32,000 bases of DNA, taken from the NCBI GenBank assembly GCA_947632415.1, contig CANRPB010000003.1, positions 1 to 32,000 on the forward strand, read 5' to 3'. Source of the DNA: an uncultured Bacilli bacterium. GTDB taxonomy: Bacteria > Bacillota_I > Bacilli_A > RF39 > UBA660. The notes beneath the pieces were generated by a model. The model saw only the letters and a program-made list of their open reading frames with translations. It made no database searches and had not been told where the DNA came from. This document shows positions 8,923 to 29,357 of this stretch, in pieces (within the stretch, counting starts at the first letter, position 1; each line of letters starts with the position of its first letter). The position numbers and the translations under genes are program-made.

Positions 8923-10527
8923 ATGGACAGTGTCCTTACTAAACCGGGGACAATTCATTTGGTTGAAAAAATTAAAAATAAATTAGCTCCTATACAAAAA
9001 TTATTATATTTACAATCTAAAATATATTTTAATGAAAAGACTCAAAGATATGAGGGTATTGGAGAATGGCTTAATAGTCGTAGGGATGGTTTGATATATG
9101 GTGTAAAAATTCCTAAGTATAGCTTTTCTACAACAACAACTGCAACTAAAATAGGTGCTAACGCAAATTTAATATTAGAACCTTCTACAGAGACTAGTGC
9201 TGGTAGAAATGATTATGAAAATATTGTATTATTTGAATGTATAAGATGTAATGGTGGAGTTGACGCAGATGGCATGCCATATGTAACTGCTATTGAAGGG
9301 TTAGATGGAAGATTTGATCCAATTAAAAATAATACATATATCATAACACCAGTATATTATAGAAAAATAACTTCAGACACGCAATATAGCACCTTTGAAT
9401 ATACTGATACTCCAACTACTGGTTTTACTGCTTGTTATGGAGCATATACAGCGACAAATGTATTGCGGCCTTTCATTTTACGAGCCTGTTATTTAGATTC
9501 AGACGGCAAGTGTAGTTCTAAATCTGGGACTATTCCTGGAACTTATAGAAGTCCTACTTCTATTGCTCACTCTCTTAATTATGATTTAACTAATAGTAAA
9601 AATAGACAAGATGGTTTAACATTTTTAACTTATGGGGATATTTGTTATCAAGAAGATTTTATGGAGCTTATGCTTGGAGTAAAAGCTCCACGAAGTCAAG
9701 TTGTTGGATGTTGTAGTTATAATTATCAATATAATTTAGCTGCGGCAGAAACAAATGTTAAACGTATTATACTTACAGATGCACAAGCTGCATTTTTTGA
9801 AATTGGCTCTACTGTATCAGTGGGCAATGAAACTGTAACTAATAAAGATCGTAATAATATTGCGAGCCATGCTATTGCGAGTTCTGTGAAAATTATTTCT
9901 AAAACGTCTCTTGGAAATGGTAATACTGCACTTAATTTAAATTTATCTAGTAATATAACAACTAAAACGAATTATTTTGTTTCTTCTATGCCGTGGTATA
10001 ATGGTACTTGTGATAAAATTCAAGGGACTTATGGTGCTCGCACTACTGCTGCATTAAAAAATAGTAAAGAACCTTTCAGATTTCAAAATTGTGAATGGAA
10101 TTTGGGAGTTTGGGAAGTTTTTTGTAATTATATGGGCATCTGCTCAACTGATGGTACAAATGATACTTATGAATATTATTTAGCACCTGATATATCAAAA
10201 GTAACTACTTCAGATGGTCAAACTGGGTGGGTTAAAATGACACATATTACAGTAGATACTAAAAATGCGAAATATATTAAAGATTATGAAGTTGAAAAAG
10301 GTGCTCGAATCCCCTCTGCTTGGAGTGGAACTGCTACTACTGGTTATATGAGTGGCTGTTGGCTATTTGGATCGGCTGGTTCCCATGAAATCCTGGCCGG
10401 TGGGGACTTGCGCGCTGGTGCTCTGGCTGGTGTTGGTGCATTCGATGCGGACTATGCCACGGGGTCTGCGTATTGGTCCTTTGGGGGCCGCTCATCTACC
10501 ATCGGGCATTCCGCGCCAGCGGAATAG
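8923..10527 (+). CDS. DGR variable (target) protein, probable receptor-binding fibre/tip protein
   Basis: 534-codon ORF behind aaaggag. Its last ~45 codons contain the VR. The VR peptide AGGDLRAGALAGVGAFDADYATGSAYWSFGGR matches the TR-encoded SGGNLNNGALAGVGAFNANNATGNANWNIGGR, a pattern typical of C-type-lectin-fold DGR targets. Confidence 0.85.
   Translation: MDSVLTKPGTIHLVEKIKNKLAPIQKLLYLQSKIYFNEKTQRYEGIGEWLNSRRDGLIYGVKIPKYSFSTTTTATKIGANANLILEPSTETSAGRNDYENIVLFECIRCNGGVDADGMPYVTAIEGLDGRFDPIKNNTYIITPVYYRKITSDTQYSTFEYTDTPTTGFTACYGAYTATNVLRPFILRACYLDSDGKCSSKSGTIPGTYRSPTSIAHSLNYDLTNSKNRQDGLTFLTYGDICYQEDFMELMLGVKAPRSQVVGCCSYNYQYNLAAAETNVKRIILTDAQAAFFEIGSTVSVGNETVTNKDRNNIASHAIASSVKIISKTSLGNGNTALNLNLSSNITTKTNYFVSSMPWYNGTCDKIQGTYGARTTAALKNSKEPFRFQNCEWNLGVWEVFCNYMGICSTDGTNDTYEYYLAPDISKVTTSDGQTGWVKMTHITVDTKNAKYIKDYEVEKGARIPSAWSGTATTGYMSGCWLFGSAGSHEILAGGDLRAGALAGVGAFDADYATGSAYWSFGGRSSTIGHSAPAE
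10397..10500 (+). repeat. DGR variable repeat (VR)
   Basis: Hand alignment to 10604-10707 at a constant offset of 207 nt with no gaps. There are 17 mismatches, 14 of them at TR adenines. The other three are 10425, 10493 and 10499, the last two at the 3' end where IMH/IMH* differences are expected. Confidence 0.9.
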
Positions 10528-10534
10528 GGGTGAA

Positions 10535-10566
10535 TTGGCCGAAGGCCAAGAGGGGTGCTAACCCCT
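10535..10566 (+). promoter_or_regulatory. two adjacent GC-rich hairpins downstream of VR (candidate DGR target-recognition structure)
   Basis: ttggcc-gaa-ggccaa (10535-10549) and aggggt-gcta-acccct (10551-10566) are both perfect 6-bp stems. They lie just 3' of the target-gene stop (10525-10527). Confidence 0.5.
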
Positions 10567-10603
10567 ATGGGGAGTTTGACCGTCTCGGTTTCTTTTCCGC
10601 GCT

Positions 10604-10707
10604 CCGGTGGGAACTTGAACAATGGTGCTCTTGCTGGTGTTGGTGCATTCAATGCGAACAATGCCACGGGGAATGCGAATTGGAACATTGGGGGCCGCTT
10701 ATCTAGC
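10604..10707 (+). repeat. DGR template repeat (TR)
   Basis: Invariant partner of the VR. In the VR reading frame it holds nine AAY codons plus ATT. It lies in non-coding space 126 nt upstream of the RT start. Confidence 0.9.
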
Positions 10708-10832
10708 ATAAATTTAAAGGTCAAATTCACTGTCTTTGAATGTAGACAGCTTAGCCATGCTTAACTAAGTGAAATAAGAGGACTGCCCGACTCCCTAGTA
10801 CAGATAATATGGAACGGGAGTTACTTCTCTAG
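10604..10832 (+). ncRNA. DGR template RNA (TR plus TR-RT spacer)
   Basis: Inferred from DGR architecture: TR followed by a 125-nt spacer immediately upstream of the RT gene. Transcript ends are not determinable from the sequence. Confidence 0.45.
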
Positions 10833-11906
10833 ATGAAAACGTATTGTAAAAATATTGACATCACAAGCTATAAACATTTAAATGATAGCTTCGATAAATT
10901 TATAGAAAAAGGATACCGCCGTAAAGGTATCAAACGTTTTTTAAAGAGGGGCAGAAAAAATATTATAAATTCTGCTAGACAGATGCTTTTAAACCATAAT
11001 TTAATTCTTAATGAAATAAATTATTTTTATAGAACTGAACCTACAACTTTAAAAACTCGTCTTATTGCACGTGAAAGTGCAATGCAACAATACTTTGATT
11101 ATATTGCAGTTGTTGCATTAAAACCTATGTTCGATGCAAAAATTGGATATCATCAATGCGCATCTATTAAAGGCAAAGGCCAAGCACATGCACAACGATA
11201 TTTAAAAAGATGGGTACGGGATTTAAATAATAAATATTATGTTAAATTAGATATACGTAAATTTTATGAATCAGTTGATACTGCAATTTTAATGTCAATG
11301 TTAGAGAAAGACGTTAAAAATAAAGATTTGTTGTGGTTAATAGAAACATTAATTAGTACGTATAAAAAAGGTTTAAATATAGGTTCTTTTCTTAGCCAAT
11401 ATTTAGCTAATTATTATTTATCAGAAGCTTATCGGTATGCAAATAATTTATATAGATATAAAAGAGATAAACGAGTTAAATTAGCTAAACATATTTTAGT
11501 TTATATGGATGATTGGATTTTTATAGGTAGTAATAAAACTAATATAAAAAATGCAGTAAAACAAACAATTAATTTTATTGAGCAACAATTAAAATTAGAA
11601 GTAAAACCTTGGAAAATATGCCAAATAGATTCTGAACCAATAGATATGGTTGGATGGGTATTTAGACGTCAACGTACTTCGATAAGAGATACAATTTTTT
11701 TAAGAGCACGTAGAGCTTTTAAGAGAGCTGCCCGCAAACAATTTATTAATCCGCATGCAGCCGCACGTTGTATTTCATATTGGGGTTTCTTTAAATGGGC
11801 AGATAATGACTTGTTTGAACAAAATAACAATTTAAAAAAAATATTAAATGATTGTAAAAATAGTATATCACTATCTGCTATAGAAAAAAATCTTAACGTA
11901 ATCTAA
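10833..11906 (+). CDS. DGR reverse transcriptase
   Basis: 357 aa. YMDD catalytic box (ILVYMDDWIFIG) and the DGR-type IGSFLSQYLANYYL motif (SQ..AN). Adjacent to the TR/VR pair. Confidence 0.9.
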   Translation: MKTYCKNIDITSYKHLNDSFDKFIEKGYRRKGIKRFLKRGRKNIINSARQMLLNHNLILNEINYFYRTEPTTLKTRLIARESAMQQYFDYIAVVALKPMFDAKIGYHQCASIKGKGQAHAQRYLKRWVRDLNNKYYVKLDIRKFYESVDTAILMSMLEKDVKNKDLLWLIETLISTYKKGLNIGSFLSQYLANYYLSEAYRYANNLYRYKRDKRVKLAKHILVYMDDWIFIGSNKTNIKNAVKQTINFIEQQLKLEVKPWKICQIDSEPIDMVGWVFRRQRTSIRDTIFLRARRAFKRAARKQFINPHAAARCISYWGFFKWADNDLFEQNNNLKKILNDCKNSISLSAIEKNLNVI

Positions 11907-11941
11907 TAATGAGTAGAGATAAAAGGAGGTTTAACTTAGAT

Positions 11942-13309
11942 ATGGCGAAGGGTAATCCTAATGACGAATCTATGAAATTAAATTTCATACCTAAAGTCTG
12001 GGATGATGAAGCAAAAGAATTTAAACCATTCTATATTGCTCCTGACTCTACTGATAAAGTTCGTGGGGACGTTTATTTATCTGATGATTTTAGTGAAAGC
12101 GATGCGGCAACTGGTGTAACAGCTGCTACTCCTAAATTATTGTCTACATTACGGGATGCTTATATTGATTCTGCGACCGAATCCGCGGAAGCTGCTAAAA
12201 CTGCGGCTGAAGCTGCTCAGGCCGCCGCAGAATCTGCAAAAAATATCGCGGATAATTCAATTCAAAAAAATGACCCTAGCGATCAAAAAATACAAGGTAG
12301 TATTATACCGACTGCCCCAGGGACTCAAAGTTTAGGAACCGAAGAGTTTCCTTGGGGCGATATATATGGTACATTAAAAGGAAATGCGGATAGTGCTACT
12401 GAAGCAGAACATGCTAAATCTGCGGATAAAGCTACGACTGCTGAGAAAGCAACAACAGCTGATACTGCCACTAAACTAGGCGCAGCTACTATAGGTGGAG
12501 TCGCACAAGGTATATATCTTAATCTTGGGGTTCCAACTGCGAAAAATGCTAATATAGGATCTGCATATTTACCTAGTTATTTAAAAGGCGGGATAGATAC
12601 TGTTTGTACTTCGCCTTCACTTTTGGTAAATTTAGGTGTGGGAACTGCTGCTAATATTTTTGCGCAAGATCCTAGACCTGGAGTTACTGGTGTTTTACCT
12701 ATAGCTAATGGTGGTACTGGTAAAACTGATGCAGCAGGAGCTCGTACTGCTTTAGGTTTAGGCAGTTTAGCTACGTATAATTTACCTACTGGAATTCCAG
12801 AAACTATAAATAACTTATTCATAAATGGAGCAGGACAATGGGTAGAAGTAAAAGGTGGGGGTATTGGAGGAGATATTCTTGCTGGAGAAAAATTGTCTAC
12901 TAATTCTGCTAATAGTTTAGCTACAGATAACTCAGCTTCTTCGGGAAAAGCAATAACTATTCCTTCTAAGGATAATAAAGAACTTATAAGAAAAACGTTT
13001 GAAGTTCCTTTCGGAAGTTATTCTATTATAGTAAGAGCAAAAGTCACTGCTAATACTAGTACTAGTACTATTTTTCAAATTATTGCTTATGCTGGTACAA
13101 CTTTGTTAAAATCAGTAGACATAAAGCCTAATTATTTTCTTGCTGCTAATACTTGGCGTCCTATTGGAATAGGTGTTGATTTTGCGGCAACAGCAGCATG
13201 TAATTTAGTTATAGTTATAAAATCTGTAGGACTAACTGAGAACATTACAGCTTATATAGATAGTTTAACTGTTATGCTTGCTCCAGTTGCAATTAATATG
13301 ATAGGATAG
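11942..13309 (+). CDS. tail fibre protein, paralogue B
   Basis: ATG 11942 sits behind aaaaggagg (11921-11929). The ORF-track start at 11909 lacks an RBS. The N-terminus MAKGNPNDES..YIAPDSTDKVRGDVYLSD..TGVTAATPKLL is paralogous to 7884..8897. Ala/Glu coiled-coil stretch and an IANGGTGKTDAAGARTALGLGSLATYN fibre motif. Confidence 0.75.
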   Translation: MAKGNPNDESMKLNFIPKVWDDEAKEFKPFYIAPDSTDKVRGDVYLSDDFSESDAATGVTAATPKLLSTLRDAYIDSATESAEAAKTAAEAAQAAAESAKNIADNSIQKNDPSDQKIQGSIIPTAPGTQSLGTEEFPWGDIYGTLKGNADSATEAEHAKSADKATTAEKATTADTATKLGAATIGGVAQGIYLNLGVPTAKNANIGSAYLPSYLKGGIDTVCTSPSLLVNLGVGTAANIFAQDPRPGVTGVLPIANGGTGKTDAAGARTALGLGSLATYNLPTGIPETINNLFINGAGQWVEVKGGGIGGDILAGEKLSTNSANSLATDNSASSGKAITIPSKDNKELIRKTFEVPFGSYSIIVRAKVTANTSTSTIFQIIAYAGTTLLKSVDIKPNYFLAANTWRPIGIGVDFAATAACNLVIVIKSVGLTENITAYIDSLTVMLAPVAINMIG

Positions 13310-13313
13310 CATT

Positions 13314-14642
13314 ATGGATAATTATATTAGAAAAGAGGACGTAGCTGAATTAAAAGCTAGATTAGTAGCTGTATATGATAAAAGAGATGGATGGGGTTCA
13401 TCTGAAGTTATTAAGCATAAATTACTTAATAATAGTGCGAATATTACAAAAGATGGATATATTATTGGTGAAGATTATGCAGCACTTGATAATGCTATTT
13501 TAGATTTTAATGATGCTTTTGTTAATAATGTAATATACACTAATACTATACAATCTGTATATCCTGCAAGAGAAGTACAAGAAAATATAGCAATTTCAAA
13601 ATTAGAAAAACATTCTGAAAGTGACCACGGCTGTCGCGGAGCTTGTATAGGTCTTTGTACTGGTACTTGCGATAATACTGTAGCTGGCAAAACAACTTCT
13701 AGTTCAGGTTGCAGTAGTTGTGAGGGTGGATGCTATAATACTTGTGAAAGCGCTTGCGGGAGTAATTGTATAAATGGCTGTACTGGTAGTTCTGGCTCAC
13801 AAGGTAGTAATGGCTGTTCTGGATGTTCAGGTGGATGTTCAGCATGTACTGGCGGTTGTAGTTCTGGCTGCGGGTCTGGATGTACCAATGGATGTATCGG
13901 TTGCTCAGGTGGATGTCAAGGATGTTCATACTGTACTGCGTCCTGTCAAAGTAACTGTACTGGTACTTGTTATAACTCTTGTACTTCACAATGTGGGCAA
14001 AGTTGTTCTGGGGATTGTAACGCGCAATGTACTAATTGTTTTAATATGTGCAGTGGGTGTACTGGTACATGCGATGGATCATGTAGAACTGGTAGCGGAA
14101 GTAGTTGTGGCTCAGGATCTACAAACTGTACTTCAAATTGCGGATCTTGTCGATCTTGTGTAACTGTGTGTGGAAGTGGCTGTAGTGGTAGGTGTACGGG
14201 TTGTTCAAATACGTGTACCCAGACATGTTCTGAGGGAAGTGCCGGAATAGCAGGCGGTTGTGCACTCTGTGCAGGTGGTTGTAAGTCTGGCTGTGGTAAT
14301 GGATGCACAGGAGGTTGTGGTTCTGGTTGCTCAACAGGTTGTACAGGTTATACTAGCTCTAGAGGAACTAGTGGTGGTTGTTCAAGCTGTTTAGGCGGAT
14401 GTTCAGCATGTACTGGTAGTTGTAGTTCTGGCTGCGGATCTGGGTGCACGGGGAGCTGTTCTCAAAATTGTGTTAATGAGTGTGGACAAACATGTGGGAC
14501 AGGATGTACTAATCAATGCAATAACGTATGTACTTCTTGTTCATTAGGATGCTATAGTGGTTGTAGTCAGTCATGTTCATCAAATTGTGATAGCACTTGT
14601 TTTTCAAATTGTTCAAATACCTGTTTTGGACAATCAAAATAA
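13314..14642 (+). CDS. cysteine-repeat (C-x3-C / C-x2-C) protein, putative radical SAM substrate
   Basis: 442 aa. The first ~105 aa are of ordinary composition. The next ~335 aa hold about 77 Cys (my count), spaced almost only C-x3-C or C-x2-C with G/S/T/N/Q between them, in blocks split by Cys-free G/S/T linkers. Starts 5 nt after the fibre-gene stop. Confidence 0.8.
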   Translation: MDNYIRKEDVAELKARLVAVYDKRDGWGSSEVIKHKLLNNSANITKDGYIIGEDYAALDNAILDFNDAFVNNVIYTNTIQSVYPAREVQENIAISKLEKHSESDHGCRGACIGLCTGTCDNTVAGKTTSSSGCSSCEGGCYNTCESACGSNCINGCTGSSGSQGSNGCSGCSGGCSACTGGCSSGCGSGCTNGCIGCSGGCQGCSYCTASCQSNCTGTCYNSCTSQCGQSCSGDCNAQCTNCFNMCSGCTGTCDGSCRTGSGSSCGSGSTNCTSNCGSCRSCVTVCGSGCSGRCTGCSNTCTQTCSEGSAGIAGGCALCAGGCKSGCGNGCTGGCGSGCSTGCTGYTSSRGTSGGCSSCLGGCSACTGSCSSGCGSGCTGSCSQNCVNECGQTCGTGCTNQCNNVCTSCSLGCYSGCSQSCSSNCDSTCFSNCSNTCFGQSK

Positions 14643-14666
14643 CATAAAGAGAAAAAAGGAGATCAA

Positions 14667-15002
14667 ATGAGAAAAATAATAGTTTCATGTCCACAAGATT
14701 TAGCTTTAGAATTAGAAAAAAATTATTATGAAATAACTGTTTTACAACAATTAATTGATAGGTACATTGACAATCATCCAGAAATTGAAGACATATTTGA
14801 AACTAAAATTGGATTTAATTTATTACAACGACTTACCGAAAAACAAACTAACTATGAAACATTAAAAAATATTTTAACTAAAAATGTTATTCCAGAATAT
14901 TTGCAAAATCATAGTCTTAATTGGTCATTAGATTTTTTAAATAATGAAGTAACAATTAATATTTTATGCGATTGCGAGATCCCAGAATGCCCAAAAGAAT
15001 AA
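14667..15002 (+). CDS. small partner protein of the Cys-repeat/radical SAM cassette
   Basis: 111-aa ORF behind aaaggag, between the Cys-repeat gene and the radical SAM gene. Its 3' end overlaps the latter. Function is inferred from position only. Confidence 0.55.
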   Translation: MRKIIVSCPQDLALELEKNYYEITVLQQLIDRYIDNHPEIEDIFETKIGFNLLQRLTEKQTNYETLKNILTKNVIPEYLQNHSLNWSLDFLNNEVTINILCDCEIPECPKE

Positions 15003-16315
15003 TAGAATTTGGAGATCAAATATCGCAACTTTATCCTTCTTTTAAACCAAAAACACCAGGTAGTATTGTTAAAAATATTACTCTATGTGTAACTAATGAT
15101 TGTCAATTAAGATGCACTTATTGTTATGAACATCATAAATCTAATCAATATATGGACTTTAATACTGGAAAAAAGTTTATAGATTTAATTCTTACTGGCG
15201 ACAAAGGAATGGATCAATATGTGTCAACAGAAGATTCTAAAGGTGTTATATTAGAATTTATTGGTGGAGAACCAATGCTAGCTGTTGATCTTATTGATAA
15301 ATTACTTGATTATTTTATAGAAAAAGCGTTAGAATTAAATCATCCTTGGGCTTATTGTTGGAGAGTATCAATTAGCTCTAATGGAGTAAATTATTTTGAA
15401 CCTAAAGTTCAACAATTTTTAAAGAAATGGGATCAAGTACTAGCCTATTCAATTTCATTAGATGGCAATAAAGAATTACATGATGCTTGTCGTCATTATG
15501 CGGGAACTACTATAGGATGCTATGATGAAGCTCACGCAGCCGCATTAGATTGGATGTCAAAAGGGCATTACCTTGGTTCTAAAATGACTTACTCTCCTGA
15601 TAATATCCCCTATATGTATGACGCAATGGTTGCAATGTTAGATGATGGTTACACTGAAATTGCATCAAACCCAGCTTTTGAACCTAAATATACTATAAAC
15701 GATGCTAAATTATATTACCAACAAGGGAAAAAAATAGCTGATGAAATTTTGCGTCGTAATCTTGATATGGATAATGAATATAGTATTACTTTATTTGATG
15801 ATGGTTTATTTGGCCCAATAGCAGAAGATGATATTCAAAACTGGTGCGGCGGTACTGGTTTAATGATTGCTTGTGACTATGACGGGCTTATCTATCCTTG
15901 TTTACGGTATATGTCTATGTCTCTTGGAGATGACCAACCTCCTCTTATTTTAGGTAATGTAGATGATGGTATTTTACAAACTAAAAAAGAGCGAGATACT
16001 CTAAAATGTTTGCAATGTATAACTCGTCGTACACAATCTACTGACGAATGTTTTTATTGCCCTATTGGACGAGGTTGTGCTTGGTGTTCTGCTTGGAATT
16101 ATCAGCTCTATGGGACTGCTGATAAAAGATGTACTAATATTTGTGTTTTACATAAGGCAAGAGCACTGTTTAACTATTATTTTTGGAATAAATACTATCG
16201 TAAAACACATCAAAATAAAAGAATGAAGATATTTATTCCAGAAGAATGGGCTTTAGAAATTATTTCTAAAGATGAATGGAATGAATTACTAGAGTTAGAA
16301 AGGGTTGATAGATGA
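14966..16315 (+). CDS. radical SAM / SPASM-domain peptide-modifying enzyme (maturase)
   Basis: CQLRCTYC (CxxxCxxC) and GGEPML SAM-binding motifs. The C-terminal Cys-rich auxiliary-cluster region (CGGTGLMIACDYDGLIYPC ... CLQC ... CFYCPIGRGCAWC) resembles a SPASM domain. The start may instead be ATG 14987. Confidence 0.85.
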   Translation: MRLRDPRMPKRIIEFGDQISQLYPSFKPKTPGSIVKNITLCVTNDCQLRCTYCYEHHKSNQYMDFNTGKKFIDLILTGDKGMDQYVSTEDSKGVILEFIGGEPMLAVDLIDKLLDYFIEKALELNHPWAYCWRVSISSNGVNYFEPKVQQFLKKWDQVLAYSISLDGNKELHDACRHYAGTTIGCYDEAHAAALDWMSKGHYLGSKMTYSPDNIPYMYDAMVAMLDDGYTEIASNPAFEPKYTINDAKLYYQQGKKIADEILRRNLDMDNEYSITLFDDGLFGPIAEDDIQNWCGGTGLMIACDYDGLIYPCLRYMSMSLGDDQPPLILGNVDDGILQTKKERDTLKCLQCITRRTQSTDECFYCPIGRGCAWCSAWNYQLYGTADKRCTNICVLHKARALFNYYFWNKYYRKTHQNKRMKIFIPEEWALEIISKDEWNELLELERVDR

Positions 16316-16638
16316 AAATTCAATTAGACGCTAATGAACCTTTTGAAGTAAATGGCGTTACTCAATCTTATAATAAAGATAGATTAAATAATCCTTATCA
16401 TCTTTATATTACTATTATGGATCAAGATAAACCTCTAAAAGATTATATCGAATTAGTAGAACATATATCTACTATTACAATTTTACCTGAAGATGGGGGT
16501 AAAAAAGTAAAATTTAATATCATTGCAACAGATGGAGAAAATCAAGGGGCTACTTATAGTAAAACGTTTGATGATAATAATCAAATAATTAATTTAACTT
16601 TTGTTATTGATCCCAAAGAGTTACCAGTGGAAGAATAA
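16312..16638 (+). CDS. hypothetical protein, translationally coupled to the radical SAM gene
   Basis: 108-aa ORF whose ATG overlaps the radical SAM stop (ATGA). No motif recognised. Confidence 0.5.
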   Translation: MKIQLDANEPFEVNGVTQSYNKDRLNNPYHLYITIMDQDKPLKDYIELVEHISTITILPEDGGKKVKFNIIATDGENQGATYSKTFDDNNQIINLTFVIDPKELPVEE

Positions 16639-16733
16639 TAAGATATAAATAAAAATATAATCTTAATAATTATAGTACTACAATTCAATGCACTCTTGGC
16701 ATTAAATTAATAGAAAATTAAAAGGAGATAAAA

Positions 16734-17079
16734 ATGAAACTTCTTGATTCAACGGGGGGGGCATTTAGTCTCTAAAATAAAAAGTTGGGTTAATTCTAGA
16801 TTAAATTTATTAGCTTGTAGACAATTGCATATTGCTCCTAACAATGATTATTCTGCTCAATTTGTAGTATATTATGCAAAAGAAGGGTACAGTACATATA
16901 AGCATGATTGTTTAATATTGACCCCTAGCTGGACAAAAAATAATATATTGCAATTAACATTTTCTCGTAGAGATGGTGGAGGCTATACTGCTGCATGGAA
17001 ATTGTCTATAGACGAAAATGGTTTTGTCAAAGGAACATATTATGATGATCCCAGCACTCCAGTATTACCAGAAAAATAA
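16734..17079 (+). CDS. polyG cassette 1 (conserved MKLLD..GG N-terminus, unique C-terminal domain), out of frame at G8
   Basis: aaggag, 6-nt spacer, then ATG 16734 gives MKLLDSTGGAFSL-stop. The long ORF (16744..17079) is in the +1 frame after the G8 tract and contains no in-frame ATG. G7 or G10 would fuse the two frames. Confidence 0.6.
16754..16761 (+). repeat. G8 homopolymer in the 5' coding end of cassette 1
   Basis: Read directly: aacGGGGGGGGcat. Confidence 0.95.
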
Positions 17080-17095
17080 GTATAGGAGGATATAT

Positions 17096-17630
17096 ATGAA
17101 ACTTTTAGATGGGGGGGGCTCGGCATATAATAAATGCTTTTACCTCTCATTTTGATGCAGGTGTCTTTAAAATCGGTAAAGAAAGCAAGATAGATGATTG
17201 TTATTTCCCAGAACGCGGATGCATGATCGCTAATGTAAAATTTCATCATGAGTTTGAGGCTCCTCCTTTTGTTTTCATACAGTCTGTTCACGGCTTTGGC
17301 GCAGGATCGAACGTGTCTACCGAGATGCCTGACTATATTACCTCTAAAGGAGAGGTCTTGCACCCTGGAGAGTTGCAATCTAATACTTTTGCTAATAACA
17401 GAGCAGCTAAACAGATGTTAGCCAACTTTATGTGCACTGTGTCAGATCATCCCGCTAAAGATGGATTTAGAGCGTATTTAAGTATGGATGATATTACATG
17501 GAGTCAGATGACTACGTTAGATGACCCTCCGCAAGAAGTCCATGGGACGTGGGGTTTGGGCTTTTCTTGGTTTGCTTTCTTACCATTTGATAAAGATTTA
17601 GCCAACATTTCAGTTTATTCTTATAAATAA
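17096..17630 (+). CDS. polyG cassette 2 (conserved N-terminus, unique C-terminal domain), out of frame at G8
   Basis: aggagg, 6-nt spacer, then ATG 17096 gives MKLLDGGGSAYNKCFYLSF-stop. The long ORF (17109..17630) is +1 relative to it. G7 gives MKLLDGGARHIINAF. ATG 17109 abuts the tract and could allow weak initiation of a form lacking the N-terminus. Confidence 0.6.
17111..17118 (+). repeat. G8 homopolymer in the 5' coding end of cassette 2
   Basis: Read directly: gatGGGGGGGGctc. Confidence 0.95.
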
Positions 17631-17646
17631 TAACTAAGGAGAAAAA

Positions 17647-18060
17647 ATGACAAAGCTATTAGATCAGGGGGGGGCAACTTATTTAATAAATAAGTTTAAT
17701 AGTTCTGGTTTACAAGAATATCAAAAGAATAAAATACATCCGTTAGATAAATTTCTTCGTAAAGCAACAAATTATACAACTTTAGATACTATAGGGAGCA
17801 ATGCTAATACTCTATATTATAACTCTAATGTATGGGGTCAAGCAGATGGCAAAAAATATATTGGTATTCCTTCATCTGTAAGAGGTCGTTTTCATTTATT
17901 AACTTTTAATAGTGGTAATAGTGGCAATGCTTTGCAAAATATATTTCAAATATTAATTTGTCTTGATCCTCCTAAAGGGTTATTCTTTAGACAAAGTTGG
18001 GATAGATGGGAAAGTTGGTATCAAGTTCCTATAACAGAAGTAACTGATGTAATAAAATAA
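17647..18060 (+). CDS. polyG cassette 3 (conserved N-terminus, unique C-terminal domain), in frame at G8
   Basis: taaggag, 5-nt spacer, then ATG 17647. MTKLLDQGGATYLINKF reads through the G8 tract in frame for 137 aa. Confidence 0.7.
   Translation: MTKLLDQGGATYLINKFNSSGLQEYQKNKIHPLDKFLRKATNYTTLDTIGSNANTLYYNSNVWGQADGKKYIGIPSSVRGRFHLLTFNSGNSGNALQNIFQILICLDPPKGLFFRQSWDRWESWYQVPITEVTDVIK
17667..17674 (+). repeat. G8 homopolymer in the 5' coding end of cassette 3
   Basis: Read directly: cagGGGGGGGGcaa. Confidence 0.95.
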
Positions 18061-18063
18061 AAA

Positions 18064-18102
<39 letters not shown>

Positions 18103-18228
18103 TAGAGCATATAACAAACCATTTTTTCTGTAACAAAAACTTCAATTTTACCAAACATCATAATTAGCTTTTTGCATTAACAATAATTTGCAAAATGACA
18201 ATTATAAAATTTTTCAAAGGAGGGGTAT

Positions 18229-18765
18229 TTGGATTCTTTAACAAATTTATTGCAGCAATACTCCTTTGAAAGTATTTTTATTTTTATAATATTACTTGTT
18301 GTTGCTTTTAAATTTATTAGTGAAGCATTTGAATGGTTATGGGGAAAGATTAGAAAAGTGTCTAATAAACAATATAAGGAAGAGCACTTTGACGAAAAAT
18401 TCTCTAAGTTAGAAAAAAATATAAATAATCACTTTCAAAATTCTGACCAAAAGATGGTCGAATTAGAAGAAAGACTTAATTTACAATTTAATGAGTCTAA
18501 ACTAAGAATCCAGGATATTGATAATAGATTAATTGTTATGGAAGAACGTCAACAAGAAGCAACACGTTCTTATTTAATAGAATCATATCATAAATTCTGC
18601 AAAGAACTAAAAATAATAGATGAATTAAGTCTACAAGAAATAGAACGCCGTTATTTGTATTATAAAACAGCGGGTGGAGATGGTTTTATAGATAATTTAA
18701 TGGAAGAAATTAGAAATTTACCTTTAGCACCACTCGCAAATCAAAAGGAGGAGAATAATGATTAA
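18229..18765 (+). CDS. membrane-anchored coiled-coil protein
   Basis: TTG start behind aaaggagggg. N-terminal hydrophobic helix (IFIFIILLVVAFKFI) followed by a charged heptad-like region. Confidence 0.5.
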   Translation: MDSLTNLLQQYSFESIFIFIILLVVAFKFISEAFEWLWGKIRKVSNKQYKEEHFDEKFSKLEKNINNHFQNSDQKMVELEERLNLQFNESKLRIQDIDNRLIVMEERQQEATRSYLIESYHKFCKELKIIDELSLQEIERRYLYYKTAGGDGFIDNLMEEIRNLPLAPLANQKEENND

Positions 18766-19543
18766 TTATTTAAAGACAAATGTTATTTTCCTCAAACATC
18801 TAGATCAAAAAATAGAGACTCCTGTTATAGCGGGGGCTGGTGAAGCAGGCGGCCGCAAATTAACTTTAGTTCTTACAGAAGAAGCCGCGGCCCGCTTAAC
18901 GCCTTTAACTCAAATATATTTAAACTGGAAACATTTAGATGTACCTAACCTTAAAGGTTTTAATATATTCACGCAAGAAGAGCCTATAGAATTGTCATGC
19001 GGGAAATTGTATCCTGTTTGGTCTATTGGATGGCCCGCCGCAATGAAACAAGAAGGTACTGTTCTTGCGAATATTGTATTTTTAGATGAACAAAGTAAAG
19101 ATGAATCTAATTCATTTGAAATAGAAATATTATCAGATATAGCTGGTAGCGAAGATTTAATGAATGAAGAAGATTTTTCTTTATTTGAAGAAATGTTACT
19201 TAAAATGAATAAGCAACTTGATAAAATAGAAAAACAACAAAAACAAATAGAAACAACTCTTAAAAAAGTAGAAAAATTGCAAGAACAATTAAACCAAGCT
19301 CAAAAGAATTTAGAAACTTGGCAAAAAGCTGTAGATGAAGAAATAGATACTCTTGAAAACGAATGGTTAGAGTTCTTAGAAGATCTTGATAATAATTATA
19401 AATATCGTATAGAAAAATTAGAAAAACAAATGTACTTATGGTATTCATACCATGGTTTATCTTATTATCCAAGATTTGATACTACTAATATAATAGAACC
19501 AGGTCTACCAGAATATGATGATTGGAATTATAATGGAATATAA
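18758..19543 (+). CDS. coiled-coil protein, possibly BppU-like N-terminal domain
   Basis: 261 aa. The start overlaps the upstream stop. The C-terminal half is strongly coiled-coil (KQLDKIEKQQKQIETTLKKVEKLQEQL). The N-terminal resemblance to baseplate upper protein domains is a weak recollection. Confidence 0.45.
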   Translation: MINYLKTNVIFLKHLDQKIETPVIAGAGEAGGRKLTLVLTEEAAARLTPLTQIYLNWKHLDVPNLKGFNIFTQEEPIELSCGKLYPVWSIGWPAAMKQEGTVLANIVFLDEQSKDESNSFEIEILSDIAGSEDLMNEEDFSLFEEMLLKMNKQLDKIEKQQKQIETTLKKVEKLQEQLNQAQKNLETWQKAVDEEIDTLENEWLEFLEDLDNNYKYRIEKLEKQMYLWYSYHGLSYYPRFDTTNIIEPGLPEYDDWNYNGI

Positions 19544-20045
19544 AGTTATTTCTTCTGACATAGATTGTTATGATAAACCTAATCTTTTTACTGGTAAAAT
19601 TATAGATTCAAAATCAAATGGTGATATTATTAATTTAGATAAAACTAATTTAATTTCAGGGAATTATACATGGGGGATATATCAAGATTCAAATTACCCT
19701 GAATTATCTGTATATATCCCAATCAAAGATAATAATAGCAATGATATTTATCTCATTCCAATAGTAGAGAATGAAATAAACTTAATAGGCGGACTTGAAC
19801 CAGTTTCTATTACTGTAGAACCTGGGATATATGAAATAATTGTATCTAGTTTACATATACGTTCTGGTCCTAGTTTAAGCGCTCCTATTGTAGGAAAATA
19901 TGTTAAAGGTCAACAAATAAATTTAGTTAATTATTTTAATATTGCGGATGGCATGATATGGGGCAAATTTTATACATCAGGTAGGTTTGAAAGATATATA
20001 GCTGTTCGCAATACAAATGGAAAAGTATATGCTAAGAGGATATAA
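19533..20045 (+). CDS. SH3b-like domain protein
   Basis: ATG 19533 overlaps the upstream stop. The C-terminal IRSGPSLSAPIVGKYVKGQQINLVNYFNIADGMIWGKF resembles bacterial SH3 cell-wall-binding domains. Confidence 0.5.
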   Translation: MEYKVISSDIDCYDKPNLFTGKIIDSKSNGDIINLDKTNLISGNYTWGIYQDSNYPELSVYIPIKDNNSNDIYLIPIVENEINLIGGLEPVSITVEPGIYEIIVSSLHIRSGPSLSAPIVGKYVKGQQINLVNYFNIADGMIWGKFYTSGRFERYIAVRNTNGKVYAKRI

Positions 20046-20329
20046 TGAGTAAATTTGATGTAATTCTAATAATTATAGGATTATTTATTTTAGCTGCATG
20101 CGGAGCTGACTTTTGGTTAATTATTAATGATTATCCTGAATTTGGCGGTGGATTCTGGAGCGTAATTTTAGGAATAGCAACTGGCGAAGTTGTTTCATTT
20201 TCTATCTACCGCATGGTTAAACGTGTACAAGAAACTAAACTTCCCCGTGCTTTAACTGGCAAACATGCACTCATACAAGAAATGGAAGATACCGAAGAAA
20301 TAGAAGGAGTGAATACAGATGGAGCTTAA
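20045..20329 (+). CDS. holin-like membrane protein
   Basis: 94 aa with two predicted hydrophobic helices and a charged C-terminus. TAATG overlap with the upstream gene. Lies immediately upstream of the endolysin region. Confidence 0.55.
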   Translation: MSKFDVILIIIGLFILAACGADFWLIINDYPEFGGGFWSVILGIATGEVVSFSIYRMVKRVQETKLPRALTGKHALIQEMEDTEEIEGVNTDGA

Positions 20330-20618
20330 AAACAAATTAATGAGCCGCAAATTTTGGATGGCAGTCGCTGCGTTTCTTGCTTCTATTGGAAGTTCAATAG
20401 CTGGCTTTGCTACACAAAATGAAGTTTTAGCTACTGCTGGTATTATTTGTTCAGTAGTTTCTGCGGCTATTTATGCGGCTAGTGAAGCATATATAGATGC
20501 GGCTAGTGTTGAGGCTAACCAAAGTATTACAACTACTAATGTAACTGCTTCAAGTAATTCTAAAGAGACGGTAGAGAAGATTCTTACTCCTACTGTTGCA
20601 ACAGAAGTGGTAGAATAA
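20319..20618 (+). CDS. holin-like membrane protein
   Basis: 99 aa. SRKFWMAVAAFLASIGSSIAGF and AGIICSVVSAAIYAA hydrophobic helices. Overlaps the previous gene. Confidence 0.55.
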   Translation: MELKNKLMSRKFWMAVAAFLASIGSSIAGFATQNEVLATAGIICSVVSAAIYAASEAYIDAASVEANQSITTTNVTASSNSKETVEKILTPTVATEVVE

Positions 20619-20714
20619 TGGCAGAAGAATTAACTCAAATTTTTGATATACCTTTAAAAGAAGGTGAAGAAGCTACTCTAGCTACTGAAGAAGAATTATC
20701 ATGCGGAAGAGGGG

Positions 20715-21683
20715 ATGACGAAGATGAGTAATAGCTCTTTAGTAAGCTATACTAAACTAAGTCCTAACTATTCTAATCGTACAGAAAAAATTTCTAAAAT
20801 CACTGTCCATTATATGGCAGGCAATTTATCGGTAGAGACATGCGGCGAAGTATTTGCACCATCTTCAAGACAAGCATCTTCTAATTATGGTATTGGCTCT
20901 GATGGTCGAGTGGGTATGTATGTACCCGAAGATAAACGTGCTTGGACGTCTTCAAGTGCCTGGAATGACCAAAGAGCAGTAACTATTGAAGTTGCTAATA
21001 CTGATAGTTATGGTACTTTTACAACAGCTGCTTGGAATACACTTATTGATTTAGCTGTAGATATTTGTAAACGTAATGGAATTACTTCACTTAATTTTAC
21101 AGGGGATAAAAATGGTTCCGTTACTTGGCATTGTATGTTTTCTGCTACAAGTTGCCCAGGTCAATATTTTAAAAATAATACACAACGATTTGTACAAGAG
21201 GTAAATGTAAAATTGGCGCCAGCAAAACAACGTACACATAAATTACAAATTTGGGATTGGTCTAATAATACCAATCAAAAATTCTGGTATCGCTCATTAG
21301 GCAATAACTTATATGGCATTCGTTCAGTTGCTACTAATGAGTGGATTAGTGATCCAAATTCTTCAACAACTCAAACTGATGCAGAAACTTGGGGCGGAGC
21401 AGATAATGGTACTGCTACTGATGATCCAAGAGATCCACAAATTTTAGTATTTGAAAAAGTACATGAACTTGGCGGATATTATATTCATCCACAAGTTGCT
21501 CCTAATCTTTCATTAGATGTCGCGGGCGGTAGTACAACTAATGGTACCAAAGTACAATGGTATCCAAGTAATAAAACTCTCGCGCAAGAATGGCACTTTA
21601 TCCCTGCCGATGGAAATGCTTATTATATTATTAATGCGGCAACCGGCAAAGCCTTAGATATGAAAGGCGGGGGTTGGGTCTAA
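20715..21683 (+). CDS. endolysin: N-acetylmuramoyl-L-alanine amidase with a ricin-type lectin-like C-terminal domain
   Basis: Amidase_2/PGRP-like motifs (ITVHYMAGN, SSNYGIGSDGRVGMYVPEDKRAWTS, AVTIEVAN). C-terminal Q-x-W type repeats (LQIWDW, AQEWHF, LDVAGGSTTNGTKVQWY). The start may instead be ATG 20724. Confidence 0.8.
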   Translation: MTKMSNSSLVSYTKLSPNYSNRTEKISKITVHYMAGNLSVETCGEVFAPSSRQASSNYGIGSDGRVGMYVPEDKRAWTSSSAWNDQRAVTIEVANTDSYGTFTTAAWNTLIDLAVDICKRNGITSLNFTGDKNGSVTWHCMFSATSCPGQYFKNNTQRFVQEVNVKLAPAKQRTHKLQIWDWSNNTNQKFWYRSLGNNLYGIRSVATNEWISDPNSSTTQTDAETWGGADNGTATDDPRDPQILVFEKVHELGGYYIHPQVAPNLSLDVAGGSTTNGTKVQWYPSNKTLAQEWHFIPADGNAYYIINAATGKALDMKGGGWV

Positions 21684-28742: not shown

Positions 28743-29357
28743 TTATAATTTACCCATTTCATTTAGTCTTTTTAAAATTTCATTAACAGCTAATAAACTC
28801 GATTCTAACCCATTATTACTATTAGTTTGTTTAATAATAATAGGAGCTACTTTAGAATTATGTTTTAGCCATGTTTTAAATCCTAAAAAATCTTTAAAAT
28901 CTGCAAACATACGACGTATATATTCAAAAGACCATTGATTTTCTCTCTCTTTTGCCCTCTTTAAACGACTAGGCCAATTTAATTCTAAAAACACAGGGAT
29001 AGTATAGTTAAATAGTTCACTATCCATTAAATGTTTAATCCCATTTGGATCTACTACTGCAATATTAAATCCATCTTTAAACTCATCTGTACTTATCCCA
29101 TAAAAATTATTATTAAACTCTGTAGATTCTATATATTTCCCCGCAGATAATTTTTCTAAAAATGTAAGTTTTGATACAAAATGATAATCTGTGCCATCTT
29201 TCTCATTTCTTCTTTGCATACGAGTTGTATCACTTACTACAAAATGGACAGGAAGGTACTTCTGTACTAGTGCTCTAAGCAACTGTCTTGCAACGGTGTC
29301 TTTTCCTGTCGCACTTTTCCCGCATATTGCTATTAAAACTTTATCCATTAATTTCAT
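28743..29357 (-). CDS. guanylate-kinase-like nucleoside monophosphate kinase
   Basis: P-loop CGKSATGKDT and SDTTRMQRRNEKDGTDYHFVS (the TTR.pR..E.dG.dY.F motif of guanylate kinases). Confidence 0.7.
   Translation of the reverse strand: MKLMDKVLIAICGKSATGKDTVARQLLRALVQKYLPVHFVVSDTTRMQRRNEKDGTDYHFVSKLTFLEKLSAGKYIESTEFNNNFYGISTDEFKDGFNIAVVDPNGIKHLMDSELFNYTIPVFLELNWPSRLKRAKERENQWSFEYIRRMFADFKDFLGFKTWLKHNSKVAPIIIKQTNSNNGLESSLLAVNEILKRLNEMGKL

Follow-up and report, generated by a model that had tools for sequence, protein, structure and literature searches.

CteB, which acts on the SCIFF peptide CteA (thermocellin), is a thioether-forming radical S-adenosylmethionine (SAM) enzyme with a SPASM domain and two auxiliary clusters, and SCIFF substrates are about 45 amino acids (aa) long with six Cys. 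PapB, which acts on PapA (freyrasin, a ranthipeptide), is likewise a radical SAM/SPASM enzyme and makes six thioethers between Cys sulfur and Asp C-beta in the CX3D motifs of its substrate, each with a loss of 2 Da (PMC9413430). Another system, known by its CXXX repeats, has been defined computationally through the models TIGR04115, TIGR04116 and TIGR04119; our literature search yielded no publication that deals with CXXX-repeat systems or with phage structural proteins modified by a radical SAM enzyme, and the ranthipeptide clusters treated in one Clostridia preprint are SCIFF clusters and not members of the TIGR04115 family. Here we analyse a four-gene cassette in a 32,000-nucleotide (nt) stretch of DNA (contig CANRPB010000003.1, assembly GCA_947632415.1) from an uncultured Bacilli bacterium. 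We call this whole stretch the window, and it is, judging from its tail proteins and tail-fibre paralogues, phage DNA.

The cassette encodes a Cys-repeat protein, a small partner protein, a radical SAM/SPASM enzyme and a 108-aa protein, and it is a phage-borne version of the computationally defined and apparently experimentally untouched CXXX-repeat system. As in that system, the enzyme passes TIGR04115, the target has a Cys at every third or fourth residue, and the gene just before that of the enzyme encodes a partner of about 100 aa, which intermediate sequences connect to TIGR04116. We are confident that the enzyme and the Cys-repeat protein are paired as catalyst and substrate, and we lean towards a reading in which a fibre-like protein of the virion receives many intramolecular thioether cross-links from the enzyme. 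The four open reading frames (ORFs) that a preliminary description of the letters had placed here were all found on the + strand, as follows.

13314-14642, + strand: Cys-repeat gene, 442 aa with 77 Cys
13314..13631, + strand: N-terminal non-repeat domain, aa 1-106 of the Cys-repeat protein, from an iterated local hidden Markov model (HMM) and alignment
13632..14642, + strand: CXXX/CXX repeat domain, aa 107-442 with 77 Cys, the predicted substrate region, from Cys count and spacing
13830..13886, + strand: internal duplicate, copy 1 (GGCSACTGGCSSGCGSGCT), 7 nt and 1 aa apart from copy 2
14394..14450, + strand: internal duplicate, copy 2 (GGCSACTGSCSSGCGSGCT), 57 nt
14667..15002, + strand: 111-aa partner, a divergent TIGR04116 relative
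14966..16315, + strand: radical SAM/SPASM maturase, 449 aa, 404.1 bits to TIGR04115
16312..16638, + strand: 108-aa protein, the fourth conserved cassette member, with its family in 79 loci

The enzyme and its predicted Cys-repeat target

The enzyme matched NCBIfam TIGR04115 (radical SAM peptide maturase, CXXX-repeat target family) over profile positions 2-359 of 359 at an E value of 6.7e-121, its 404.1 bits exceeding the curated cut-off of 350 bits; the scores of its relatives ranged from 271 to 610 bits. The next-best families were PapB (NF047865; 142.1 bits, E 2.3e-41, cut-off 340 bits), the nearest characterised family by profile score, the SCIFF maturase (TIGR03974; 90.5 bits, cut-off 425) and then CcpM, HxsB and QhpD, all of them under their own cut-offs. 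The radical SAM motif reads C46-x3-C50-x2-C53, and seven C-terminal Cys (C294, C312, C362, C365, C371, C374 and C393) have a SPASM-like arrangement; the three motif Cys and all seven C-terminal Cys were invariant in an 18-sequence family alignment. The preliminary description had recognised a radical SAM enzyme with SPASM-like C-terminal Cys clusters and had given the name of a CXXX-repeat maturase model, and both points hold, the model being real and the enzyme passing it. That description had also named what would speak against it, a best score to a family with an unrelated substrate and no co-occurrence with Cys-repeat genes in relatives; the best score went instead to the family defined on a CXXX-repeat target, and the co-occurrence is set out below. 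The public gene call (P0001) begins at the ATG at 14987 and gives an enzyme of 442 aa.

Among solved structures the best relative of the enzyme was PDB 5WGG (E 6.7e-31), the structure of CteB. The alignment begins at residue 88 of 5WGG, and the first 87 or so residues of CteB form the N-terminal, leader-binding recognition element (RRE) of ribosomally synthesised and post-translationally modified peptide (RiPP) maturases, so that the window enzyme is without an N-terminal RRE domain. Unlike the SCIFF system, then, the window combines an enzyme lacking this element with a substrate of 442 aa. The TIGR04119 domain was likewise absent from the window enzyme, and a hidden TIGR04119-like domain in the phage cassette was ruled out, as a local profile of that domain gave no match there. 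At E <= 1e-30 the relatives of the enzyme numbered 2528. Several homologues (P0020, P0026-P0029, P0052, P0056 and P0104) are 590-780 aa long and contain intein domains (Hint_2, Intein_splicing, LAGLIDADG_3).

In the Cys-repeat protein, residues 1-106 are without Cys, the first Cys is residue 107, and 77 Cys follow over 336 residues. Neighbouring Cys are spaced by four residues 55 times and by three residues 15 times, and six Cys-free linkers of 7-14 residues separate the blocks. The composition of the 336-aa repeat part is C77 G72 S66 T37 N23 Q12 A11, or about 23% Cys. These figures agree with the preliminary description, which had counted about 77 Cys after an ordinary N-terminal region of about 105 aa and had seen C-x3-C and C-x2-C spacing in blocks with Cys-free linkers. 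Its report of an internal duplication between two 57-nt segments also stands, with the number of differences corrected from about 8 to 7 nt mismatches; the encoded 19 aa differ at one residue, so the duplication has been kept at the level of the protein. DNA-level tandem repeats were almost absent from the gene (Tandem Repeats Finder), which places the periodicity in the protein, and recent DNA slippage was discarded as its source on this ground. An artefactual Cys-rich frame was ruled out too, given the conservation in more than 100 loci and the duplicates that differ by 7 nt and only 1 aa.

The repeat domain of the window opens with the cap DHG-CRGACIGLCTGTC and closes with the cap ...CSNTCFGQSK, both of which are conserved, the N-cap being kept in L001, L002, L004 and others. 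Across the family the start cap is S-S-S-x-C-R-G-A-C-T-G-L-C-x-G-T-C, and C-(F/Y)-G is the usual end of the array. The repeat unit in 131 non-redundant proteins follows the consensus C-[STG]-[GS]-[GST]; neighbouring Cys are four residues apart 4163 times and three residues apart 1521 times. Against PHROG the repeat domain gave only a weak match to phrog_6085; a homologue search with residues 1-158 of the Cys-repeat protein returned no match.

Relatives, linkage and accessory proteins

Enzyme-profile scans were run on IMG/VR viral contigs and on bacterial contigs with one genome per species, and 80 loci were fetched from each. Local HMMs were iterated on the 5171 ORFs of the fetched loci, the 168 sources being 167 related loci and the window. 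Relatives of the enzyme were present on at least 540 IMG/VR viral contigs and on contigs of 243 bacterial species. The bacterial carriers were mostly anaerobic gut Bacillota (Lachnospiraceae, Oscillospiraceae, Eubacterium, Faecalibacterium, Blautia), with a few Eggerthellaceae, spirochaetes, Desulfosporosinus, Brevibacillus and Margulisiibacteriota; hosts that are almost all strict anaerobes fit an oxygen-sensitive enzyme. Translated searches (tblastn) with the enzyme also gave matches of 25-27% in Erwinia and Salmonella jumbo phages, which were set aside as another radical SAM protein.

Linkage was counted in the 126 loci flanked by 2.5 kb or more on each side, as an ORF with at least 12 Cys pairs spaced 3-4 on the same strand within 3 kb of the enzyme. 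Such an ORF was present in 115 of them, upstream in 110 and downstream in 5, which bears out the co-occurrence check proposed in the preliminary description. Of the 11 unlinked loci, several either have a Cys-repeat ORF that runs into the 3' part of the enzyme gene or are members of a small-peptide branch described below. No ORF lying more than 3 kb from the enzyme had more than six such pairs, against 70 in the window protein; the Cys pattern of the window protein is far beyond chance. The partner and the 108-aa protein travel with the enzyme-substrate pair even where the gene order changes, and the order of substrate, partner and maturase noted at the outset was conserved in well over 100 relatives.

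Cys-repeat ORFs in the relatives ranged from about 60 to 830 aa, with a median of 64 Cys per ORF, and 182 of them could be sorted by architecture. In 107 the repeat follows an N-terminal domain, as in the window, and 45 are repeat only; 13 have the repeat first and then more than 300 further residues, 11 carry an N-terminal domain, the repeat and a C-terminal domain of 100-190 aa, and a few have the repeat first and a region resembling the N-terminal domain last. A domain scan of two of the long-tailed ORFs, each of about 820 aa (L132 4723-7221 and L089 4761-7214), found a 240-aa Cys-repeat domain followed by two ALK/LTK glycine-rich domains (PF12810, E 1e-99). Only the repeat is thus common to all these architectures, in which it acts like a spacer that separates folded domains.

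The N-terminal domain of the window protein is a divergent member of a family of about 100 aa with the consensus LKAKVKAEMxRR...YDF...EH..K...PLL, present in 127 of the 168 sources; it had no relative in Pfam, PHROG or PDB, where a profile search returned nothing below E 0.06. The 45 repeat-only and the 13 long-tailed repeat ORFs do without this domain, and we therefore rejected as unlikely the idea that it serves as an obligatory leader. In very common Blautia-type prophages (L004 8327-9661; also L005-L007, L010 and L092-L114) there are two adjacent Cys-repeat genes; those of L004 encode 176 aa with the N-terminal domain and 264 aa that are all repeat and start MACSKGCGTSC, and between the two genes lie a stop codon and 9 nt. 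About 1000 contigs have a record of this lineage's partner protein.

The small-peptide branch (L074-L080, for example L076 1166-4022 and L080 7941-10859) has enzymes about 35% identical to that of the window. These score 523-543 bits to TIGR04115 and are fused C-terminally to a 210-aa TIGR04119 domain that the window enzyme lacks; the local profile of this domain was strong only on L074-L078, L080 and L082. The branch differs from the window further in its targets, which are pairs of 42-65-aa precursors with a leader (MKLSSM..SSVQPRWCPCQG, also written MKLSSM..SSVQPRWCPCQGGCTGC...) in place of a 442-aa protein with a folded-looking 106-aa N-terminal domain, and in its partners, which pass TIGR04116 where the window partner fails. 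It is also without the phage markers seen elsewhere (baseplate J, gp48, reverse transcriptase, fibre families), whereas the window cassette sits in a tail-fibre module and has the conserved 108-aa protein in addition. The highest TIGR04115 score (610 bits) belongs to the phage-type enzyme of L004, indicating that the curated model already spans both branches.

The partner of the window scored 12.7 bits (E 0.11) to TIGR04116, the CXXX repeat peptide modification system protein, under the curated cut-off of 50 bits. This model too had been named in the preliminary description; it exists, but membership of the window partner in it does not hold at the cut-off, and among 40 diverse partner homologues only 3 matched it at E <= 0.01. 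To the local iterated family profile the window partner scored E 2.9e-34, and that profile also takes in the L076 partner (E 4.8e-11) and, weakly and in a late round only, the L080 partner (E 1.8e-5), which themselves pass TIGR04116 with 62.6 and 57.9 bits. Through these intermediates the window partner is a divergent TIGR04116 relative, and not a member by the curated test. In 141-151 of the 168 sources the gene immediately before that of the enzyme belongs to the partner family, 141 being the first-round count and 151 the final one, both given because local HMM iterations may drift at the margins. A search of 1.84 billion representative proteins with the partner profile gave 240 clusters at 50% identity, and a homologue search with the partner sequence returned four proteins only.

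The AlphaFold2 model of the partner, built on a four-sequence alignment, has the order beta-alpha-alpha-beta-beta, with a three-stranded sheet on a helical hairpin and a mean predicted local distance difference test (pLDDT) value of 85.5. Against PDB, Foldseek found nothing at E <= 0.001 and a sequence-profile search nothing below E 0.06. Taking as the mark of an RRE either a winged helix of three strands and then three helices or sequence similarity to PqqD, we concluded from this fold and the lack of a PDB match at E <= 0.001 that the partner is not RRE- or PqqD-like. Some partner-family proteins of about 205-233 aa carry two tandem copies of the domain (P0160, P0167, P0177, P0179, P0188, P0206, P0211 and others).

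In its 79 loci the gene of the 108-aa family either follows that of the enzyme immediately or is placed between the Cys-repeat and partner genes. This protein and two further members of its family had no significant relative in Pfam, PHROG, NCBIfam or PDB (nothing below E 0.06 in the PDB profile search), and the partner, the 108-aa protein and the Cys-repeat protein gave no Pfam or NCBIfam match at standard thresholds. The partner gene has a strong ribosome-binding site (AAGGAG), the enzyme gene overlaps its end, and the 108-aa gene opens in an ATGA overlap with the enzyme gene; the preliminary description had noted the overlaps. Over 11909-16638 no + strand terminator was predicted save one weak match inside the enzyme gene.

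In relatives the cassette typically adjoins baseplate, tail-fibre, diversity-generating retroelement and lysis genes. In the Blautia-type prophage, whose enzyme is 50% identical to that of the window, the order is tape measure, baseplate J, Mu gp48, tail-fibre N-terminal domain, a 200-aa protein, the two Cys-repeat genes, partner, enzyme, a 240-aa and a 760-aa protein, and reverse transcriptase. Within 8 kb of the cassette, baseplate J was found in 70 loci and reverse transcriptase in 33, counts that are lower bounds because they were seeded from one phage type. Among 141 neighbours in 25 diverse bacterial loci the recurrent Pfam families were Mu gp48, Baseplate_J, amidases, holin, Mtd_N, BppU_N and Phage_tail_fib. 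The claim that a full-size substrate lies inside a tail-fibre block was therefore borne out, with baseplate J, Mu gp48, tail-fibre, retroelement and endolysin genes adjoining the relatives.

Proposed chemistry and role

The four genes, which follow a tail-fibre gene, are translationally coupled and would probably be carried on one late transcript. In the enzyme, C46, C50 and C53 would hold the SAM-cleaving [4Fe-4S] cluster and the SPASM domain, by comparison with relatives, would hold two auxiliary clusters. The 5'-deoxyadenosyl radical would then take a hydrogen from a carbon of a repeat unit, and the sulfur of a nearby Cys would join that carbon; repeated many times along the 336-residue C-x3/C-x2 array, the reaction would give a chain of small thioether rings. 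For the thioether chemistry itself, which is argued from analogy, we regard the case as evenly balanced. It is supported by the nearest other families (PapB, SCIFF maturase, QhpD), all of which form thioethers. PapB in particular links a Cys to the residue four positions on, a distance equal to the period of the window array, and the acceptor may accordingly lie in the next repeat unit; as no Asp or Glu is conserved, it could be the Cys of that unit, or Ser, Thr or Gly. PapA differs in being a short leader peptide with six CX3D motifs, against about 70 units, no conserved Asp or Glu and a protein substrate in the window. In place of an RRE, it is probably the 111-aa partner that grips the substrate or offers it to the enzyme, and the repeat with its conserved caps would be the recognised element.

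A classical RiPP pathway has a short leader precursor, a protease and usually an exporter, whereas the window has a 442-aa substrate and, among the ORFs of 8923-21683, no protease, transporter or exporter family was found. Judged by what defines each of them, the cassette is neither a PapB nor a SCIFF nor a classical RiPP pathway. With none of these nearby and no signal peptide in the Cys-repeat protein by inspection, a full-length cytoplasmic product is expected. This product would be built into the virion as a stiff stalk resistant to proteases and reduction, and the N-terminal domain in the window, or the C-terminal domains in relatives, would attach or bind. Synteny and domain fusions somewhat favour a structural role in the virion, and the large substrates with their fusions to glycine-rich and other domains suggest such a role rather than a small diffusible product. 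Repetitive tail-fibre stalks (collagen-like Gly-X-Y, coiled-coil) offer an analogy only: they too are short-period repeats of small residues and variable length, encoded among tail-fibre genes and placed, as in relatives of the window protein, between N-terminal and C-terminal globular domains. There is no relation in sequence or fold, and the rigidity here would come from covalent rings made by an enzyme, not from trimer packing. A stronger version, in which a gut-phage tail fibre or receptor-binding appendage consists in part of a 150-400-residue C-x3/C-x2 array stitched into a continuous thioether ladder and a new accessory fold replaces the RRE, is possible, and we put it forward tentatively.

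Several points weigh against a cross-linked virion protein. The repeat has no conserved acidic acceptor, Asp and Glu together staying below 10% at every position in the 131 proteins, so the chemistry need not be thioether formation, and the PapB and SCIFF models score the enzyme far below their own cut-offs. The partner is without similarity to RRE domains, which makes its role a guess. The structure prediction suggested for the repeat region in the preliminary description was made on the whole 442-aa protein, alone and without an alignment; AlphaFold2 gave a pLDDT of 38.9, which is uninformative and leaves the rod without structural support. No cultured phage in a collection of 50,697 phage records carries the cassette by tblastn with the enzyme, the best matches being unannotated faecal contigs, and a megablast of 11000-20000 against the same number of phage records gave no match. 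We found no experiment of any kind bearing on the CXXX-repeat family. Finally, the region between tail-fibre and lysis genes is also a classic site of non-structural 'moron' genes.

This last point leads to the reading that the cassette is itself a moron, making a RiPP-like product (a bacteriocin, signal or surface coat) that aids the lysogen or hits competitors and is released at lysis or processed by proteases of the host. Besides their frequent occurrence between these modules, the existence of a non-phage branch of the enzyme family with classic 42-65-aa precursors would suit such a product, as would the production of RiPPs by every one of the nearest characterised enzymes; among the neighbours of the 25 loci, ABC-transporter genes and LytTR/response-regulator genes occurred twice each, their source loci not having been traced. 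We nevertheless consider a moron unlikely, as the phage-type cassette encodes neither protease nor exporter, is without an immunity gene and a signal peptide, lies in relatives inside the fibre genes and not at the prophage edge, encodes large substrates fused to glycine-rich or other folded domains, and is tightly coupled to the upstream fibre gene with no clear terminator between.

The Cys array might alternatively serve through its thiols, as a metallothionein-like, iron-sulfur-binding or disulfide-rich protein on which the enzyme makes a different or limited modification. A Cys content near one residue in four with small Gly, Ser and Thr spacers does resemble metal-binding arrays, no acceptor residue stands out in the repeat, and auxiliary clusters of SPASM enzymes are reported to bind substrate cysteines directly (PMC10177961). 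A plain metal binder, however, would need none of the radical SAM/SPASM enzyme and two accessory proteins that are linked to the array in more than 100 loci, every close characterised relative makes C-S bonds, and disulfides would presumably not form in an anaerobic cytoplasm; we judge this reading improbable, to about the same degree as the moron. Less probable again is a modified protein that only helps tail fibres to assemble, whether as chaperone, scaffold or tape, and is not kept in the particle. Genes just downstream of tail-fibre genes do often encode fibre assembly chaperones, and the partner and the 108-aa protein match no known fold or family, but some 70 enzyme turnovers per molecule would seem wasteful for a transient helper. 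The ALK/LTK-type glycine-rich fusions also suggest a working part of the particle; these domains are extracellular in the receptor kinases for which they are named.

If the enzyme does cross-link a fibre-like virion protein, radical-SAM "RiPP" chemistry would reach from small secreted peptides to full-size structural proteins, and a function would be at hand for a family spread over the viral contigs and bacterial species counted above, including the very common Blautia prophages. Covalently cross-linked phage-particle material could explain how gut-phage fibres survive proteases and reducing conditions. As a thioether-ladder appendage it would be a new structural protein class and the first radical-SAM modification of a virion component, and such a fibre would surprise RiPP enzymologists and phage structural biologists alike; the former would gain a highly repetitive natural substrate with an RRE-free enzyme. 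Even without a virion role the family matters for annotation, since most sampled loci lie in phage tail modules that mining tools could mislabel as RiPP clusters.

The surrounding tail module

The window cassette lies among tail-fibre genes, a diversity-generating retroelement (DGR) and an endolysin gene, with a replication gene farther off.

10397-10502: variable region (VR) of the DGR, at the 3' end of the tail-protein ORF 8923-10527
10604-10709: template region (TR) of the DGR, 84% identical to the VR, the differences being concentrated at TR adenines
10833-11906: reverse transcriptase of the DGR (PF00078, phrog_1423)
11909..13309, + strand: tail-fibre-like gene, 466 aa, PHROG tail-fibre matches at E 3.7e-6 to 2.5e-4
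16754-16761, 17111-17118 and 17667-17674: G8 tracts, within 16729-18060
20715-21683: endolysin, Amidase_2 with a ricin-type lectin domain
29341-31998, - strand: DNA polymerase of the replication module, 42% identical to SPbeta YorL

The stop codon of the tail-fibre-like gene falls 4 nt before the Cys-repeat gene. In a whole-protein iterated profile this fibre had relatives in 59 loci; the 200-aa L004 gene directly upstream of the Cys-repeat gene, profiled separately, had relatives in 60, and its product resembles the C-terminal part of the window fibre, by eye only. The preliminary description had located the substrate between a tail-fibre paralogue and polyG cassettes, in keeping with the PHROG matches of the upstream fibre and the three G8 tracts downstream.

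The region 8923-11906 holds a complete, textbook DGR. A ribosome-binding site and an ATG precede each G8 tract by about 20 nt, and the N-termini begun at these ATGs are alike (MKLLD.. or MTKLLDQ). Of the three ATGs, the third (17647) alone shares the frame of its long ORF, so the G8 ORFs look like phase-variable alternative cassettes. None of the three had a Pfam or PHROG match. The position of the Cys-repeat cassette beside DGR-diversified and phase-variable receptor-binding genes may bear on host recognition. The identity of the polymerase with YorL of Bacillus phage SPbeta suggests a Bacillota host.

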